This document shows, piece by piece, positions 3,917-14,572 of a stretch of DNA of 14,572 nucleotides. The notes beneath the pieces are model-generated. The model searched no databases and had not been told where the DNA came from. It worked only from the letters and a program-made list of their open reading frames with translations. The position numbers and the translations under genes were made by a program. Source of the DNA: a virus (lineage: Duplodnaviria > Heunggongvirae > Uroviricota > Caudoviricetes); the IMG/VR virus record IMGVR_UViG_2648501787_000012, one strand, 5' to 3'. The stretch's first letter is position 1; the number at the start of each line of letters is the position of its first letter.

Positions 3917-4088
3917 GCCAACAGGAACACCACAACCACAAAAACGCTACAAAGATGCCCACGGAGCACTCGTTACTGTCGAAAGCGTGTCTCACAACCG
4001 AGTGACGTTTTATCGCGACGGGTATCAATCGCCATGCGTACAACCGCTGGCGCGTTTCATGAAGGAGTTCGCGGAGGTTAACCAATGA
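3909..4088 (+). CDS. Small hypothetical protein (59 aa)
   Basis: ATG at 3909 overlaps the upstream stop (ATGTCTAA) and is preceded by a strong SD, GGAGG at 3898-3902. The track ORF 3822..4088 is in the same frame, but its first Met has no RBS and would overlap the upstream gene by about 95 nt. Confidence 0.55.
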   Translation: MSKPTGTPQPQKRYKDAHGALVTVESVSHNRVTFYRDGYQSPCVQPLARFMKEFAEVNQ

Positions 4089-5152
4089 TACCCGTCCAGA
4101 AGAAGACATTTTCACTGGCTGGTATGTCGCCAAAATCCAGCAATATGACGGCAAAGTCAGGCATTAATACAGCAGATACAAGCAAAGTTTATCATTTGCT
4201 GGTGGTCGGAACGGATGCCTTAACCATACCAGAAATCTCGGGCGATGATATTAGCATTGAGAAGGTCAGCGGCTGCGCCAGAAAATTTCTGGTCGTAGAT
4301 GATGTCTTCCGCTCGCGTAGTGACTCCACAAAAACCTTCATCCGCGCGCGTGACGTTAACGAAATGAGCGCGATGTACTGTGCATCTGGTGCTTCCAATA
4401 GCGAGTTTTCGGAGTCCATAAAAAAGAGCTTGCCGTTATGCGGCAACACGGTTTATGGTTATAAGGCACCTCATAAAACGGGTGCCGGGATTGGCGTCCT
4501 GGTAAATCGAATGGCGACATATGACGCGCCGAGCGTCTTTTTTTATGTCGTAGGTCTGACTCACCCATTTTTTGGGCGTTGGTGTATAATCCAGCGCCTT
4601 TGTCAATCAATGGTGGCTCAGGCAGGGGCTTCTTCGGAAGCGCCGGTATCCATTCGAGCCGGTTACGCCAACCCTGTCTGGGCTACCACCAGCGAAATTG
4701 GCGTTTCCGGTGGTAGCGTTACATGCTATCGAATGGAGGCTGCCACATGCTGGCTACTACCCCTACCCAAAAACCGCAATTTATCTGGATTATCGCCGCA
4801 GTTCGCCGCGATTGCCCGACAATTACCGCCAGAATTCATCATATTGCTGCCGAGTCTGAACGCGATGCTCGCCGTTCTCTGGTGCGCGATCACGTCTGCT
4901 TTTTTGCTGGTCGTATCCGCATGGAGGTGGCACATGATTAAAACCTACGATGTGCATATGGATCCCCTCGAACGCACAAGCCAGATCATCACACTGACAG
5001 AAGTGATTAACGACATTCTGGTGAGCAACTCTCCCTCACGAGACGAAAGACTGAAGGCGTTACTCGCGATATTGGATCTCGCCGTTCGTGACGTTCATTT
5101 CCTGCTGGAAGGTGGCGAAATGCCAGTAAAAACGGGGGCAACCAATGAATAA
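4085..5152 (+). CDS. Uncertain long ORF (355 aa), probably a chimeric open frame rather than one protein
   Basis: ATG at 4085 overlaps the upstream stop (ATGA) and has a strong SD (GGAGG 4073-4077). Codon choice looks coding-like from 4085 to about 4580. The same frame then runs without a stop through the candidate RNA region and through the Icd-like gene (different frame) where its codons look poor (cta cta ccc cta ... tta), and merges with the 72-aa ORF at 4934. Either a real 5' gene whose end is obscured (frameshift/pseudogene) or a fortuitous open frame. Confidence 0.3.
4595..4725 (+). ncRNA. Candidate CI/C4-type antisense immunity RNA (P4 CI RNA / P1 C4 / IsrK-like)
   Basis: Perfect -10 TATAAT at 4585-4590 with a weak -35. 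GC-rich structured segment follows: UUCG-tetraloop hairpin GCTTC-TTCG-GAAGC (4628-4641), a short CCGG/CCGG stem (4643-4662) presenting the loop TATCCATTCGAG, and a 9-bp stem GCTACCACC (4682-4690) / GGTGGTAGC (4709-4717). Loop bases TCCATTCGA (4649-4657) are exactly complementary to TCGAATGGA (4729-4737), which overlaps the SD of the Icd-like gene, and to TCGAATGG upstream (4507-4514). Boundaries are approximate. Confidence 0.35.
4747..4941 (+). CDS. Host cell division inhibitor Icd-like small protein
   Basis: 64-aa ORF ([22 protein letters not shown]...[24 protein letters not shown]) with strong SD GGAGG (4735-4739) 7 nt upstream and E. coli-like codon choice. The ...SER.ARR.L.RD.V.FFAGR motif matches my recollection of the Icd-like family that follows C4-type RNAs. 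The track ORF starts at 4723, but 4747 has the RBS. Confidence 0.55.
   Translation: MLATTPTQKPQFIWIIAAVRRDCPTITARIHHIAAESERDARRSLVRDHVCFFAGRIRMEVAHD
4934..5152 (+). CDS. Small hypothetical protein (72 aa)
   Basis: ATG overlaps the Icd-like stop (cacATGATTAAa) and is preceded by GGAGGTGG (4924-4931). Good codon choice. Same frame as the uncertain 355-aa ORF, so it may be that ORF's C-terminus. Confidence 0.45.
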   Translation: MIKTYDVHMDPLERTSQIITLTEVINDILVSNSPSRDERLKALLAILDLAVRDVHFLLEGGEMPVKTGATNE

Positions 5153-6764: not shown

Positions 6765-7128
6765 AAATGCAGAAATGGCGCTTAGCTCCGCAATCGGAGA
6801 GCAGGTGGCAAAGATTGCTGGTGCTGTGTGGATTCATAACCTTCATTCTACTGGTGAAGAGAAAATGGCAATTCAGACGCCAGAGGGACGCACTATTACT
6901 ACATCTCTGAAGCCGTCAGATGTTTGTGATCTGATTTGCGCATTCATGTACCCAGCAATGAGGACTGTCCACGGCGATAAGTGGAAACTTGCGACAACCG
7001 CTGAATTTGATATGTGGCTAAACAATGATGGCATGCTGACTGATTACGGAATAACCAAGTGGCAGATGCTGGTTAGCCATATCGCAAACGCTATAGACCA
7101 CGTGGGGTACGGTGATGCGAAACATTGA
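6757..7128 (+). CDS. Hypothetical protein (123 aa)
   Basis: Start overlaps upstream stop (ATGCGTGA); its 3' end overlaps the primase start. Confidence 0.65.
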   Translation: MRENAEMALSSAIGEQVAKIAGAVWIHNLHSTGEEKMAIQTPEGRTITTSLKPSDVCDLICAFMYPAMRTVHGDKWKLATTAEFDMWLNNDGMLTDYGITKWQMLVSHIANAIDHVGYGDAKH

Positions 7129-9871
7129 TCTTATCCGTCAGGTTATCAGTGCGTCTGAAAACAACTGGCCTCATGTGCTGGGCTGCCTGAACATAAATGT
7201 CCCTGACTCTCCGCGCCGTCATGCTCCCTGCCCTGCATGTGGGGGCAAAGATCGATTCCGGTTCGATGACAACGGGCGCGGTAGCTTCATCTGTAATCAG
7301 TGCGGCGCTGGTGATGGGCTGGATTTAATTAAACGCGTAAATAACTGCGACACAACAGAGGCGGCGCTGCTTGCCGCTGATGTTCTGGGTATTGATTACC
7401 GGACAACGGAAACACCAGAAGCCACCAGCCAGAAACGGGAACAACTGGAAACCGAGCGCCAGCAACGCGAACAGGAGCGCCTGAAAAGGGCGGAGAAGGA
7501 CGAACAACAAAGACGGGATACGTTTTCCCGTCAGTTTGATGACATGCGCAGAAAGGCTGTAAACGGCAAATCTGATTATCTGGTTGCGAAAGGGGTAGGT
7601 GATTTTACATTCCCCGTGTTGCCCGATGGATCTCTGTTGCTGGCGCTGGTGGATAAATCCGGCGCAGTCACAGCAGCACAGACTATTACCTCACATGGTG
7701 AAAAAAGACTCCTGACAGGTTCAGCAAAGCGGGGGGCATATCACGCCATAAACGCACCAGAAACAACACAGAGCATCTTAATCGCAGAAGGGCTGGCAAC
7801 GGCATTATCTGCCCATTTAATTCGTCCAGAGGCGCTGACAGTGGCGGCGATTGATGCCGGGAACCTGTTATATGTCGCCCAGGTACTGCGGGATAAATTT
7901 CCTTCAGCACAAATCATCATTGCTGCGGATAACGACCACAGCGAAGGAAGACAAAACACGGGGAGAATAGCAGCAGAAAAAGCAGCTTTATCTGTTTCTG
8001 GATGGGTGGCATTACCCCCGACAGGTCACAAAGCAGACTGGAATGATTACCACCAAAAACACGGCATTAAATGCGCCACAGAAGCGTTCAATAAGTCAAT
8101 GTACCAACCACAGGGTAATGGCGTGAAACAGGAGCCACAGACCATTGAGGGAAGCGATTTTAAGGTTATGGATACCGACCCACTGAAACCAAGAATAGAA
8201 AGCCGCGAGGATGGTATTTATTGGGTATCTCCGAGAGCTGACAGCCAGAGTGGAGAAATCATCAATAACGAAAGCTGGTTATGTTCTCCGTTAAGCGTTA
8301 TCGGTACTGGCAGAGACGATAAAGACCAGTATCTCATTCTTCGCTGGCTGTCGTTTGGTTCTGAAACGCCGACAACCGCTGCCATTCCACTGGCTGATAT
8401 TGGTGAACGTGAAGGATGGCGCACACTTAAAGCTGGTGGGGTAAATGTCACGACCAAAAGCAGCCTCAGAGCAATACTGGCAGACTGGCTACAACGCAGT
8501 GGCTCTCGTGAATTGTGGCGTGTTGCTCATGCCACTGGCTGGCAATGCGGAGCGTACATCATGCCTGATGGGGAAATCATCGGAACACCTGAAAATCCTG
8601 TGCTGTTCAGCGGGAGAAGCTCAGCCGCAGCCGGATATACCGTCTCAGGGAGCGCGCAAAGCTGGCGTGATAACGTGGCGCGTCTGGCCTTTGGTAACTA
8701 TTCAATGATGACCGGGATCGGCGCAGCACTGGCAGCACCATTGATTGGGCTGGTGGGCGCTGACGGGTTCGGCATTCATTTCTATGAGCAGTCGAGCGCA
8801 GGTAAGACCACCACGGCAAACGTGGCGAGCAGCTTATACGGCAACCCTGATTTACTGCGGCTGACGTGGTACGGAACCGCGCTGGGGCTGGCAAATGAGG
8901 CCGCCGCCCACAATGACGGACTAATGCCGCTTGATGAAGTTGGTCAGGGCGCTGATCCTGTCAGCGTTTCACAGTCTGCCTATGCGTTATTTAACGGTGT
9001 AGGGAAACTGCAAGGCGCTAAAGATGGTGGAAACCGGGATCTAAAACGCTGGCGTACAGTGGCAATCAGCACCGGAGAAATGGATTTAGAAACATTTATC
9101 GCTACTTCCGGGCGAAAAACCAAAGCCGGGCAACTGGTGCGACTGCTGAATATTCCGTTGAGTAAAGCAGTACGCTTTCACGATTACCAGAACGGAAAAC
9201 AGCACGCAGACGCACTGAAAGACGCTTACCAGCATCACCATGGCGCAGCCGGGCGTGAGTGGATTAAATGGCTGGCAGACCACCAGCAACAGGCTATTAA
9301 AACTGTTCGTGATTGCGAAAGCAGATGGAGAAGCCTGATCCCACCCGATTATGGTGAGCAGGTTCACCGTGTAGCCGCGCGATTTGCCATTCTGGAGGCC
9401 GCATTGTTGTTAGGCGAGGTTGTAACAGGCTGGGATGCTCAGACATGCCGTGATGCGATACAGCACAGCTATAACGCATGGTTGCGCGAGTTCGGCACAG
9501 GTAACAAAGAGCATCAGCAGATTATTGAACAAACGGAGGCATTTCTTAATGCCTATGGGCTTAGCCGTTTTGCACCATTTCCATACAGCCCGGCAGATTT
9601 GCCCATCAAAGATTTAGCCGGATACCGTCAGCGTGGAGAACATGACGAAAGCCCAATGATTTTCTACACATTCCCGGCCACATTTGAAAAGGAGATCGCA
9701 TGTGGTTTCAACGCAAAACAGTTTGCTGAAGTGTTGAAAAAAGCCGGGATGCTAACCCCACCAAACAGCGGTCGTGGATACCAAAGAAAATCACCACGTA
9801 TTCAGGGACGACAAATAAACGTTTATGTACTCAATTACCAGCCAGGAGATTATAACTCATCTGAAGAATGA
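7112..9871 (+). CDS. P4 alpha-type DNA primase/helicase (zinc ribbon + TOPRIM + P-loop NTPase)
   Basis: 919-aa ORF. N-terminal zinc ribbon CPACGGKDRFRFDDNGRGSFICNQCG; TOPRIM signatures ILIAEGLATALS and IIIAADNDHSEGR; Walker A-like FYEQSSAGKTTT in the C-terminal half. Domain order matches phage P4 alpha and related satellite primases. Confidence 0.93.
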   Translation: MMRNIDLIRQVISASENNWPHVLGCLNINVPDSPRRHAPCPACGGKDRFRFDDNGRGSFICNQCGAGDGLDLIKRVNNCDTTEAALLAADVLGIDYRTTETPEATSQKREQLETERQQREQERLKRAEKDEQQRRDTFSRQFDDMRRKAVNGKSDYLVAKGVGDFTFPVLPDGSLLLALVDKSGAVTAAQTITSHGEKRLLTGSAKRGAYHAINAPETTQSILIAEGLATALSAHLIRPEALTVAAIDAGNLLYVAQVLRDKFPSAQIIIAADNDHSEGRQNTGRIAAEKAALSVSGWVALPPTGHKADWNDYHQKHGIKCATEAFNKSMYQPQGNGVKQEPQTIEGSDFKVMDTDPLKPRIESREDGIYWVSPRADSQSGEIINNESWLCSPLSVIGTGRDDKDQYLILRWLSFGSETPTTAAIPLADIGEREGWRTLKAGGVNVTTKSSLRAILADWLQRSGSRELWRVAHATGWQCGAYIMPDGEIIGTPENPVLFSGRSSAAAGYTVSGSAQSWRDNVARLAFGNYSMMTGIGAALAAPLIGLVGADGFGIHFYEQSSAGKTTTANVASSLYGNPDLLRLTWYGTALGLANEAAAHNDGLMPLDEVGQGADPVSVSQSAYALFNGVGKLQGAKDGGNRDLKRWRTVAISTGEMDLETFIATSGRKTKAGQLVRLLNIPLSKAVRFHDYQNGKQHADALKDAYQHHHGAAGREWIKWLADHQQQAIKTVRDCESRWRSLIPPDYGEQVHRVAARFAILEAALLLGEVVTGWDAQTCRDAIQHSYNAWLREFGTGNKEHQQIIEQTEAFLNAYGLSRFAPFPYSPADLPIKDLAGYRQRGEHDESPMIFYTFPATFEKEIACGFNAKQFAEVLKKAGMLTPPNSGRGYQRKSPRIQGRQINVYVLNYQPGDYNSSEE

Positions 9872-9893
9872 GCTTCTTCATGTGCGTAGAAAA

Positions 9894-10010
9894 GGTGTTG
9901 GTTCAGTTGGTTCAGTTGGTTCAATTTGTAAAGAGTATTGTTTTATAAGGATTTTATTCTTTTTATTGAACCAACACTGAACCAACAACACGGTATTTTG
10001 AACCAACACA
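9894..10010. repeat. Iteron array, putative replication origin
   Basis: Three tandem copies of GTTGGTTCA (9897-9905, 9906-9914, 9915-9923), a 43-bp very AT-rich spacer (9924-9966), then three copies of the reverse complement TGAACCAAC (9967-9975, 9978-9986, 9999-10007) spaced 11 and 21 bp. Begins 23 bp after the primase stop. Confidence 0.7.
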
Positions 10011-10100
10011 ATGTGACTGAATTGATGCGCACAACACCTGGCTGGCATCAGAGAGTGTTTTACGAGACTTTCGTAAAATCCTGTGTACAAGGGCGTGACG

Positions 10101-10141
10101 TTTTTGAAAGTGAGCACTACGAAATTTTCGTAGTTCAAAAA
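10101..10141. promoter_or_regulatory. Nested palindrome, possible protein-binding site or cruciform
   Basis: Outer arms TTTTTGAA (10101-10108) / TTCAAAAA (10134-10141); inner arms CTACGAAA (10117-10124) / TTTCGTAG (10126-10133) around one central T; 8-nt asymmetric insert on the left. A further TTTCGTAA half-site lies at 10069-10076. Confidence 0.35.
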
Positions 10142-10329
10142 ACAGCCTCTGAGAAGTTGTTATGCCTGTTCAGCAAACCATCCGCATAGCTGATCGCGAA
10201 TCAAATTACCAATGGAGCCAGAAGCAAGGGCAGAACTGAAAAGCGCCTGCCGTAAAGAGTAATGCGACACCATAAATATAGTTTTTAGAGTCCATAAAAA
10301 ACCTGTCAAAACCTGACACACAGAACGAT

Positions 10330-10360
10330 GCCACCAGCTACTGAGCGGTGGCATTTTTTT
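10330..10360 (+). terminator. Rho-independent terminator at the module boundary
   Basis: Stem GCCACC (10330-10335) / GGTGGC (10347-10352) with an 11-nt loop, followed by ATTTTTTTG. Confidence 0.7.
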
Positions 10361-10392
10361 GTGCTATTTGTTTCATATTTTGCAATTACGAT

Positions 10393-10422
10393 GATGAATA
10401 TTGCGATTTGCGAAACTATAAT
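10393..10422 (+). promoter_or_regulatory. Candidate sigma70 promoter for the downstream operon
   Basis: Perfect -10 TATAAT at 10417-10422 about 35 bp upstream of a strong RBS and ATG (10456); the -35 (around 10393-10399) is poor. AT-rich intergenic context. Confidence 0.3.
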
Positions 10423-10455
10423 AACTGTTGTTTTATACAGTTCTAAGGGGGCGTT

Positions 10456-10617
10456 ATGGCTATTTCAGTAAAGCCGGTATTGATAAGTGAGAAGCAAATG
10501 GAAGCGATAAAGAAAATTCAGGAAGAGCAGCGTAAAAAATCAGGAATTGGAGTAGCGCCAACTCTGCATGAAATTGCACGAGGGTTAATAGATAAGGCGC
10601 TGGCAGGCTGTATGTGA
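10456..10617 (+). CDS. Small hypothetical protein (53 aa), possibly ribbon-helix-helix-like
   Basis: Not in the ORF track (under 60 aa). ATG at 10456 preceded by an excellent SD (TAAGGGGGCG); stop TGA at 10615-10617. The translation (MAISVKPVLISEKQMEAIKKIQEEQRKKSGIGVAPTLHEIARGLIDKALAGCM) loosely fits a strand-helix-helix pattern; weak inference. Confidence 0.45.
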   Translation: MAISVKPVLISEKQMEAIKKIQEEQRKKSGIGVAPTLHEIARGLIDKALAGCM

Positions 10618-10633
10618 AAACGGATGGCACCGC

Positions 10634-11095
10634 ATGGAACTAAAATTTATTGATAACCCGGTGCGATTACAGGCCTTTCTTAACGAGCCTGGCAATACCG
10701 AAAATATTGTTGAGCCGGGGCACACGTACTACATCAAGCCTGATGCGGTATATCTCGGCATCTACGAAGGATTAGTGCTGACAGGCGTTCATGAAGTGCG
10801 TAACTTCTGGCATAGCATTGTTGAATGCCATGCGGTGTACGACCCCGGATTCCGTGGTGAATATGCACTGCAAGGGCATCGATTGTTCTGCAAATGGCTT
10901 CTCGAAAACTCACCATTCCTTAACAGCATCACCATGGTTCCTGACACCACGAAATACGGACGGGCAATTATCCGTTTGCTTGGCGCTACCCGTGTTGGTC
11001 ACCTGGCCGATGCATATATCAGATGTGGTAAACCCGTCGGCGTAACGCTTTATCAGTTAACACGGCAACAATATAAGGAACTCAGCGAATGTTAA
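10634..11095 (+). CDS. Hypothetical phage protein (153 aa), first gene of the ejection-protein-like operon
   Basis: Globular-looking protein with several His/Cys. Its stop overlaps the next start (ATGTTAA). Positionally analogous to P22 gp14, but homology is not established. Confidence 0.75.
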   Translation: MELKFIDNPVRLQAFLNEPGNTENIVEPGHTYYIKPDAVYLGIYEGLVLTGVHEVRNFWHSIVECHAVYDPGFRGEYALQGHRLFCKWLLENSPFLNSITMVPDTTKYGRAIIRLLGATRVGHLADAYIRCGKPVGVTLYQLTRQQYKELSEC

Positions 11096-11766
11096 TTACC
11101 CATATAGCTCATAAACATCTCAATCGTGCCGTATACGAAAAAGGCGGTGATGGTGGTGCCTCTAAAGCCCAGGCGAAGGCCCAGCAGCAGGCAATTGATT
11201 TGCAGCGCGAGCAGTGGAATACGGTGATGAATAATCTCAAGCCGTATGCAGAAGTCGGATTGCCTGCTTTACAACAACTGCAAGGACTGATGACTCTGGA
11301 AGGGCAGAATAAAGCCGCGAATGATTTCTTTGGTTCTGGTTTATATAAAACACAGGCAGATCAGGCCCGTTATCAGAACCTTGTCTCAGCAGAAGCTACC
11401 GGGGGGCTTGGCTCAACAGCTACCAGTAACCAGTTATCTTCCATTGCGCCCATGCTTTATAACAATTGGCTTAGTGGGCAAATGCAAAATTATGGAAACC
11501 TGCTAAATGTCGGGATGAATGCGGCATCAGGGCAGGCAACAGCAGGGCAAAACTACGCCAATAATACCGGACAACTCTTGCAGGGGCTTGGCGCTATTCG
11601 TGCAGGTCAGGCGCAGCAGCCATCCAGTCTTGCGCGTGGTATTGGTGGGGCGGCATCAGGCGCTTTAGCGGGTGCGCAACTTGGTTCCGTTGTTCCGGGT
11701 ATAGGTAATGTCGCCGGGGCTATTGGTGGTGGGCTTATTGGTCTTGTTGGGGGGCTTGGATTCTAA
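11089..11766 (+). CDS. Putative phage DNA ejection/transfer protein (P22 gp7-like by size and composition)
   Basis: 225-aa protein, Q/A/N/G-rich and low complexity, with a glycine-zipper-like hydrophobic C-terminus (GIGGAASGALAGAQLGSVVPGIGNVAGAIGGGLIGLVGGLGF). Coupled to neighbours by overlapping stop/start. Confidence 0.8.
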   Translation: MLITHIAHKHLNRAVYEKGGDGGASKAQAKAQQQAIDLQREQWNTVMNNLKPYAEVGLPALQQLQGLMTLEGQNKAANDFFGSGLYKTQADQARYQNLVSAEATGGLGSTATSNQLSSIAPMLYNNWLSGQMQNYGNLLNVGMNAASGQATAGQNYANNTGQLLQGLGAIRAGQAQQPSSLARGIGGAASGALAGAQLGSVVPGIGNVAGAIGGGLIGLVGGLGF

Positions 11767-13186
11767 TGACGACATGGCAACTTGGCGGGCTGCCTAGCAT
11801 GGCACCGCAAAATGATAATGCTCCTCGTTCTTCCGTTCCTCAGCCTGTGCAGTATCAGCAGCAGCCAAACGTAGGTTTAATGGCGCTACAGGGGCTAAGA
11901 GGCGTTGCTGAGATTAATCAGCAGGCACGTCAACAACAGCGTAAATCAGAGTTTCAGAAAGCATATGCCGGGGCTTTTGAGTCTGGAGACAGAAACAAAA
12001 TGCGCAGTCTTATTTCTGAGTATCCAGAAGAATTTGAAAGCGTTCAGAAAGGGATGGGCTTTATTGATGACGACCAGAGAAATTCTATTGGTCATCTTGC
12101 GACTAGTGCTCAAATCGCATCTTCGCTCGGAACTGGGGCATTTGGAAAATTCATAGCAGATAACGAAGATGAAATGCGTCGCTTGGGAATTTCTCCTGAG
12201 TCTGTTGCCGAAATGCATGTTAATGATCCACAGGGATTCCAGCGGCTTGCTGGTAGTATGGCACTGTTTTCTCTCGGTCATGAGAAGTATTTCAATATCA
12301 AAGATCAAATGGAAGGTCGGGATATTGAGCGAGGCAGGCTGGCAGAGACAATCCGCAGCAATCAGGCTGGCGAAGCACTTCAGGCGAGAGGGCAGGATAT
12401 TAGCCGAGCAAATGCGTTAACGTCAGCATATGCACCAACAGCAGCAATGCAGAATTACAATCAGTACGCTCAAATGTTAAAGGCGGATCCAGAGGGGGCG
12501 GCGGCATTTGCGGCAGCGGCTGGAATTAATACAAACGCCAAAAAATTAATGAGTGTTAGAGAAAACGATGATGGCACTGTCACAAAATACTACACAGACG
12601 GAAGTGAAGAGCAGGGAAAACTAAACCAGCCAATATCTGGAGATGGGTTTCGTCCAATAGCTTTGCCAACAGCCCAAAAGATCATGGAAAAGTCGCCAGA
12701 AGGGGCTAAAAAAGCTGCTGGATTTGCATACAGGGTTAGGGATGCTCTTGATTCAATAGATACACTGAAAGACCAGCTTAGCCCACAGCGAGTGGCGATC
12801 ATTAATAATGCTTTGGGTAATGGGACGCTGGCTAACTTAACGCTCAGCCCAACAGAGCAGCAATACGTTGTTAATGCTAATGACGCAATAATGGCAATAC
12901 TCCGTCAGGAAACAGGGGCAGCTATCGTACCTGCTGAAATGTCAAAATATTATCAAATGTATTTCCCTCAGCCTGGCGACTCCACAAAAACCATTGATAC
13001 CAAGCGCCGGAAGATGGAAAACCAGTTCAATTCGCTGAAAGCTGCTTCTGGTCGAGCTTATGATGCTTTGCGGGTTATTTCAGCAGTTGACAGAGGAACG
13101 TCTTCTTCGTCGCAGACATTGCCGCAATCTGAGCAGGTATCACAGCCAGCAGCCAGCAGTAACTTTTCTTCACTATGGGGTGATTA

Positions 13187-13187
<1 letters not shown>
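11766..13187 (+). CDS. Putative phage DNA ejection/transfer protein (P22 gp20-like by size and order)
   Basis: 473-aa protein, Q/A/S-rich, start overlaps upstream stop (TAATG). Sizes of the coupled genes here (225, 473, 461 aa) parallel the P22 gp7-gp20-gp16 ejection-protein trio as I recall it (about 229, 471, 609 aa). Recollection, not an alignment. Confidence 0.85.

Positions 13188-14572
<1,385 letters not shown>

Follow-up and report, generated by a model that had tools for sequence, protein, structure and literature searches.

The Rep proteins of SaPIs are self-loading helicases whose iterons lie directly downstream of rep, in opposite orientation about an AT-rich centre (PMC7581432, PMC9371898). 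Gram-negative islands share this layout, and in one of them, EcCICFT073, the pri-rep-ori segment supports plasmid maintenance (Fillol-Salom et al., PMC6092414). The DUF927 protein Cch of SCCmec has been placed with the SaPIbov1 Rep class, in which the Reps bind iterons via a C-terminal winged-helix domain; these papers describe iterons for Cch2, not for Cch (PMC7581432, PMC9371898). The phage-inducible chromosomal island (PICI) EcCIMP1 of E. coli MP1 excises and is transduced by the P22-like phage Kapi1; its publication maps and mentions no origin, and notes the ejection-type genes of the island merely as possible packaging or DNA-transfer genes (PMC11773190). For the EcCIMP1 family as a whole, our search of the literature found no description of an origin.

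The DNA studied here, referred to as the window, is a stretch of 14,572 nucleotides from the IMG/VR virus record IMGVR_UViG_2648501787_000012. It is 100% identical to part of the chromosome of E. coli strain 755, and matches to it occur in 593 of 5,426 complete E. coli genomes. The island to which it belongs is ~18 kb long and inserted between yicC and dinD. It starts with genes for an integrase, an AlpA-type regulator and an AntA-family protein, an Ash pseudogene, an Icd-like ORF and several small ORFs, and continues with a 918-aa primase-helicase (Pri-Rep), the 585 bp that bear the array described below, a 53-aa ORF and P22-type ejection-protein genes; the perC-like gene of the island sits beyond the window. 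With int, alpA and pri-rep in one rightward operon and no capsid/terminase set, the host element has the make-up of a PICI. The published evidence for helper-dependent excision and transfer comes from EcCIMP1, not from the copy in the window (PMC11773190). The ejection-type genes at 10634–14572 (DUF2824/gp14, gp7, gp20 Inj_translocase and gp16-like) are carried by a satellite that lacks capsid and terminase genes. In place of the 355-aa mechanical ORF at 4085–5152, RefSeq has a truncated pseudogene of the Ash family and, after it, a distinct Icd-like ORF (4723–4941); in sister islands the Ash gene is intact.

The features at issue, in window coordinates, are as follows.

7115–9871, plus strand: pri-rep, encoding a Zn-ribbon primase, Toprim, a DUF927 self-loading helicase and a ~100-residue tail (Pfam, RefSeq)
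9560–9868, plus strand: codons of the last ~100 residues (aa ~817–919), the putative iteron-specificity tail (tail/word covariation, Cch alignment)
9877–9884, no strand: CACATGTG-like motif, reading TTCATGTG in the window, in the gap that separates stop codon and first iteron
9897–9923, plus strand: left iteron set, GTTGGTTCA three times in tandem at a 9-bp period; position and spacing recur in relatives
9924–9966, no strand: AT-rich core, 43 bp, GC 16%, the predicted melting site; contains TGTTTTATAAGG at 9939–9950
9967–10007, minus strand: right iteron set, inverted copies at 9967–9975, 9978–9986 and 9999–10007, with 11/21 bp spacing
10054, no strand: replication cassette, right-hand junction, as placed by megablast (matches with islands of the DUF5906 type)

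Reading of the sequence and a repeat finder gave the same picture of the array. On the plus strand, three copies of GTTGGTTCA start at 9897, 9906 and 9915, head to tail; the reverse complement TGAACCAAC follows at 9967, 9978 and 9999, with start-to-start steps of 11 and 21 bp. An earlier note, made from the letters alone, had described these two triplets and their 43-bp AT-rich spacer as a putative origin right after the primase gene. Its description of the repeats is confirmed, and so is the adjacency, except that the first repeat starts 25 bp past the pri-rep stop codon (9869–9871) and not 23 bp. The spacer has a GC content of 0.163, against 0.481 window-wide, and RefSeq annotates no gene in the 585-bp untranslated stretch (9871–10456) that holds the array. 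All six exact copies of GTTGGTTCA in the 14.5-kb window lie inside the array; the number of exact copies expected in the whole 41-kb genomic locus (L001, where RefSeq places the pri-rep CDS at 17516–20272) is 0.44. When one mismatch is allowed, the window has 12 matches where 3.5 are expected; in 200 shuffles the count of 12 was never reached. Looked for literally in the literature, the repeat string turned up in no paper.

The island compares closely with EcCIMP1. The Pri-Rep of EcCIMP1 is 99% identical to that of the window; gene order, P22-type ejection-protein genes and a perC-like gene are common to both; and EcCIMP1 carries the same two GTTGGTTCA arrays, one 25 bp past rep (unit 1) and one beside perC (unit 2). 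The two islands differ in that EcCIMP1 is integrated at thrW/proA and the window island at yicC/dinD, in the distance between the arrays (8.4 kb against 7.1 kb here) and in the inverted set of unit 1, which is spaced 21/21 in EcCIMP1 and 11/21 here. We interpret the array past pri-rep as very probably the replication origin, or at least the principal origin unit, of an EcCIMP1-type PICI. This reading, which upholds the origin proposed in the earlier note, is supported by the position of the array, by a geometry conserved in 72 loci, by the covariation of the repeat word with the Rep tail, by the homology of the helicase to known Reps and by the near-identity of Pri-Rep to that of EcCIMP1.

Pfam assigns Zn_Ribbon_Prim to residues 35–70 of Pri-Rep, Toprim_3 to residues 222–319 and DUF927 to residues 366–644 (DUF927 score 6e-47). 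Through its first ~350 residues the protein shares 33% identity with the N-terminal part of P4 alpha (E 2e-41); past them no match between the two was found. After the primase, alpha consists of D5_N, DUF5906 and Pox_D5. When a profile of the Pri-Rep helicase half was aligned to P4 alpha with hhalign, the P-loop alone was common to both, at a probability of ~1%, and we therefore make no claim of homology for the origin-binding parts. A 38-sequence profile of the same half, searched against the PDB, matched 8tch_A (‘Pathogenicity island protein’, E 2.5e-22) and 5dgk_A (SCCmec Cch, E 1.7e-12), and the alignment to Cch covers both the ATPase region and the C-terminal tail. Judged by these profile matches, the DUF927 half of Pri-Rep is homologous to the self-loading helicases SaPI Rep and SCCmec Cch. 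Cch (PDB 5DGK) resembles it as a DUF927 MCM-like helicase with a C-terminal winged-helix domain that binds double-stranded DNA (PMC9371898, PMC7581432), but it has no primase fusion, and the sequence similarity is distant. A winged-helix fold of the Pri-Rep tail is suggested by the sequence-profile alignment and the literature. In a sequence search of the PDB, the last 160 residues alone gave nothing meaningful, and a literature search with the PDB code 8TCH gave nothing relevant; the AlphaFold2 model of residues 690–919, built from a 26-row alignment of homologues that are 82–91% identical, had a mean pLDDT of 48, too poor for fold searches.

These relationships bear on which known system the locus resembles most. 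The earlier note had called the primase alpha-type and likened the array to the ori/crr of P4, with a word different from the P4 octamer. The first of these holds for the homologous Zn-ribbon/Toprim third and fails for the helicase/origin-binding part, which is DUF927. P4 is further like the window island in having a cis site directly past the gene, with tandem copies at a 9–10 bp period and inverted copies about an A/T-rich stretch, and in having a second site with the same word kilobases away. It is unlike in that its word is the type I octamer TGTTCACC, against GTTGGTTCA here, as the earlier note had observed, and in that crr is a 120-bp direct duplication. Membership in the P4 ori/crr class was rejected on both the helicase/origin-binding domain and the octamer. 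The two-unit arrangement does recall P4, but the closest described system is the pri-rep-ori of PICIs and SaPIs (PMC6092414, PMC9371898). The DUF5906 islands with CTGTACCAC iterons, described below, are the closer analogues of P4.

Members of the PICI/SaPI group, such as SaPIbov1 with its Rep of the ‘Rep2’ class and EcCICFT073, share with the window island an origin (here a putative one) immediately 3' of rep, 6–12 short iterons in two opposed sets about an AT-rich centre, a self-loading Rep helicase whose C-terminal domain reads the iterons, as that of Pri-Rep would, and which in some members is fused to a primase, and an int-alpA-...-pri-rep order with unidirectional transcription (PMC6092414, PMC9371898). 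The window has the site 25 bp past pri-rep, three iterons per side about the AT-rich core, where at least two are looked for, and a Rep helicase homologous to SaPI Rep and Cch; by every testable criterion the array would thus belong to the PICI/SaPI pri-rep-ori class. Differences are seen in the word, which has 9 bp here against the penta- or hexanucleotide iterons described for SaPIs, and in the family's usual double unit of 12 copies and two AT cores, which here has 7.1 kb of cargo between its halves. In its biology the array would bring what earlier SaPI/PICI work had led one to expect, and it would be a fairly ordinary member of its class, to which the split double origin and a table of tail-word pairs make modest additions.

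To place the array among its relatives, one genome per species was scanned with the helicase half, which gave 80 loci, from Enterobacterales, Pasteurellaceae and one Pseudomonas, with a Rep 40–100% identical to that of the window, and arrays were detected by a de novo count of 8-mers in the 600 bp past each stop codon. An array with the same geometry is present in 72 of the 80 loci, so that an absence of repeats beside orthologous primases, which the earlier note had named as evidence against an origin, is not what the survey gave. No clear array was detected in about 8 loci (for example L049, L050, L067, L076, L078, L079, L082 and L086), some of which have short flanks or arrays elsewhere and which we left unclassified. 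Over the 72 loci, the median offset from the stop codon to the first copy is 25 bp, the tandem period is 9 bp, the median spacer is 43 bp with a mean GC of 0.215 (against 0.524 in the 3' end of rep), and the inverted copies are mostly spaced by 11 and 21 bp (53 and 49 cases). The word itself varies, with 15 words among the 72 loci, including GTTGGTTCA, GTTGTCTCA, GTCGGTTCA, ACGGGTTA, GTGGGTTA, AGTGTGTCA, GTTGTACCA and TAGTCCCA.

Two further motifs recur around the repeats. The CACATGTG-like motif, with up to two mismatches, is found in 55 of the 72 loci (8% of shuffles) and is independent of the repeat word, and TGWTTTATAAGG stands at a fixed offset in the rep-proximal spacer of 47 of the 72 (3.5% of shuffles), together with at least seven repeat words. 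Either motif could be recognised by a conserved part of Rep, the primase or some host factor. Variation within single arrays was also seen: in three loci from Klebsiella and Raoultella (L030, L032 and L077), within the first 140 bp past the rep stop codon, GTTGCCTCA stands at just two places, the third tandem copy and the second inverted one, the remaining copies being GTTGGTTCA, and many other loci have GTTAGTTCA as their middle tandem copy.

The inverted repeats could also be read as an RNA or single-stranded DNA hairpin, for example a terminator, an attenuator or a stabilising stem at the end of pri-rep, in which case they would not be iterons. Folded as RNA, 9885–10015 forms a long stem of −50.2 kcal/mol (z = −7.4 versus shuffles), and changes of the word from locus to locus hit both arms together, which mimics compensatory change. 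The predicted stem is strong, but no T-run follows it, and an intrinsic terminator (a GC-rich stem-loop with a T-run) was rejected for this site; a terminator scan of 9800–10700 was negative at the array, and the two terminator-like sites that it reported, 10337–10352 (+) and 10564–10544 (−), lie away from it. The inverted repeat gave rise only to sub-threshold chance matches to microRNA hairpins in an Rfam scan of the same region. Moreover, all 6–12 copies of an element share one word, even those copies that are unable to pair; 36 distinct GTTGGTTCA-type arrays depart from the word 41 times, never with a compensating change in the predicted partner; and the word tracks the protein tail, as shown below. 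We give the hairpin hardly any credence, and continue with the reading of the array as an origin.

Across 69 aligned proteins, a shared word is predicted by identity over the last ~100 residues of Rep with an AUC of 0.947, against 0.783 for the helicase core (434 residues). The earlier note had suggested that the primase and its iterons form a specificity of their own and had proposed a comparison among related primases; with 15 words that follow the last ~100 residues, the comparison bears the suggestion out at the level of sequence. The word has switched independently at least five times, each time between proteins with a core 85–100% identical and a diverged tail, as in the following pairs.

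L005/L006: core 100%, tail 42% (42–47%), different words
L054/L073: core 91%, tail 35%, different words
L012/L037: core 94%, tail 52%, different words
L011/L013: core 97%, tail 69%, different words
L060/L068: core 93%, tail 78%, different words

Conversely, the word is kept at a core identity of 57–62% where the tail stays ~68% identical. By covariation, iteron specificity maps to the last ~100 residues of Rep, which are predicted to bind the word. Class-specific residues gather in the segment ...SGRGYQRKSPRIQGRQINVYVL / ...GRGYQRKSPRIQGRQINVYVL (window residues ~885–910), which, from its place in the Cch alignment, would be the wing region of the winged helix.

The DNA around the switches shows what is exchanged. 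Between L005 and L006, a swapped block of ~620 bp, made up of the last ~105 rep codons and the whole array, is bordered on both flanks by DNA that is 97–100% identical. A larger exchange is seen in sister islands, which occupy this attachment site or a different one and in which the primase third of Rep is 85% identical but is joined to a DUF5906 helicase and tail; there, CTGTACCAC repeats stand in two clusters after the gene, replacing GTTGGTTCA. Since these islands have swapped both helicase and iterons, the helicase-tail part and the array next to it travel together. Megablast matches from the DUF5906-type islands start at query positions 452–458 (window ~10051–10057), so that rightward of 10054, ~45 bp past the last iteron, homology with islands of the different helicase resumes. 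The alternative module (L002 8315–11915; also in L003 and L088–L091) carries a P4-alpha-like DUF5906 helicase on the same Zn-ribbon/Toprim N-terminus, and its CTGTACCAC clusters are 1.1 kb apart and flank two small ORFs. Just right of the cassette junction, in sequence common to both island types, are two short palindromes of operator-like look, TTTTACGAgacttTCGTAAAA (10058–10078) and ACTACGAAAtTTTCGTAGT (10116–10134), 57 bp apart.

With high confidence, then, we take the array for an origin unit that Rep would recognise, and by analogy with SaPI/PICI and Cch work we envision the following course of events. On induction of the island, the rightward operon would be transcribed and Pri-Rep made. 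The C-terminal ~100 residues of Pri-Rep would recognise the 9-bp GTTGGTTCA, and Rep, probably as one hexamer per side, would occupy both of the oppositely oriented iteron sets. The 43-bp AT-rich core between them would then melt, the DUF927 helicase would load itself on the single strands, and the fused Toprim primase would prime synthesis. Host polymerase would copy the excised circle, for which a P22-like helper phage would finally provide the packaging. From binding and melting to the loading of hexamers and priming, these steps are modelled on the SaPI/PICI and Cch work.

Assigned in this way, the origin would be that of a widespread satellite family, and the survey provides at least 15 cognate pairs of a ~100-residue tail and a 9-bp word on one conserved scaffold. 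Such a table of pairs could help to decipher the reading of DNA by Rep helicases of this class, to foresee incompatibility or cross-activation where satellites are co-resident, and to design small replicons that are orthogonal.

The second array, unit 2, lies 7.1 kb downstream of unit 1 and ~2.5 kb past the window end, outside the stretch of sequence that the earlier note covered. It consists of six exact copies of GTTGGTTCA (L001 27424–27544; L087 9853–9973 in EcCIMP1), ends 37 bp before the perC start codon and is a homologous, mirror-image copy of unit 1. Among the 72 loci, the two units are contiguous in 46, where they form a block of ~250–310 bp with about 12 copies and two AT cores; they are split by 4.8–8.8 kb in 8 loci from six genera; and in the other 18 the rep-proximal unit is alone within the flank available. 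The units are not equivalent, as the distal one is without the TGWTTTATAAGG spacer motif. In five of the six DUF5906-type islands (L002, L003, L088, L089 and L090), the distal GTTGGTTCA unit is kept with 5–6 of its 6 copies intact, and the sixth (L091) is without perC and without the distal unit. The GTTGGTTCA word can thus persist without its presumed cognate protein, and we therefore considered whether the two island types have in common a protein that reads it; for unit 1 this idea was rejected on the evidence of the cassette and of covariation, and for unit 2 such a protein may exist. Unit 2 may have been retained because the recombination was recent, because a co-resident Rep uses it in trans or because it acts at the promoter of perC.

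Unit 2 also gives weight to an account in which the array past pri-rep is an auxiliary cis element like P4 crr, and replication starts at or needs unit 2 by perC, with Rep bridging the two. The mirror-image six-copy array is present in EcCIMP1 as well, the split arrangement recurs in 8 loci of 6 genera, and in P4 itself crr lies 46 bp past alpha and ori 4.5 kb away, with the same octamer in both. Against such a division of labour, the units adjoin in most relatives (46 of 72) and 18 more have the rep-proximal unit alone in the available flank; the conserved TGWTTTATAAGG belongs to the rep-proximal unit and is absent from the distal one; and the distal unit survives in islands that lack the cognate Rep tail, so that it is not tightly coupled to the DUF927 Pri-Rep replicon. 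We consider a crr-like role for unit 1 unlikely, though it is the most serious of the alternatives, and take the rep-proximal unit to be the principal origin, whereas the distal unit may be auxiliary or redundant.

Plasmid iterons often serve also as autoregulatory operators. The repeats might accordingly be operator or partition-type sites for another island protein, controlling the downstream module or perC, with no role in replication, and the proximity of unit 2 to the perC start codon fits this, as does the fact that unit 2 travels with perC and not with the Rep type. Unit 1, however, forms with the Rep tail one cassette that is exchanged as a whole, and across 69 proteins tail and word covary; a promoter scan found no promoter-like site in 9800–10700, and a non-exhaustive look at the other island proteins found none that covaries. 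The cassette exchange and the covariation sit badly with a purely regulatory role, which we judge highly improbable; operator function as an additional role, especially of unit 2, is possible. The rep-proximal array as principal origin is the reading that we retain.

A broader proposal, which we put forward tentatively and which is more probably wrong in some part than right in all, would join these observations. The family's normal origin would be a ~280-bp double unit of 12 iterons and two AT cores, with the outer tandem triplets facing, and in EcCIMP1-type islands it would have been split by 5–9 kb of cargo (here the P22-type ejection-protein genes). The half-origins would cooperate by Rep looping, like P4 ori and crr, and so form a natural intermediate to the P4 arrangement. 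The ~620-bp tail-plus-array segment would be an exchangeable specificity module, and the at least 15 orthogonal pairs would prevent cross-firing between satellites.

Arrays can be more numerous still. In Yersinia pekkanenii (L029), several GTTGGTTCA arrays are spread over the stretch between about −4556 and +1497, counted from the rep stop codon; besides the proximal array, there are extra ones ~4.5 kb upstream and 1.2 kb downstream of that codon, which suggests tandem or nested islands, or duplicated origin units.
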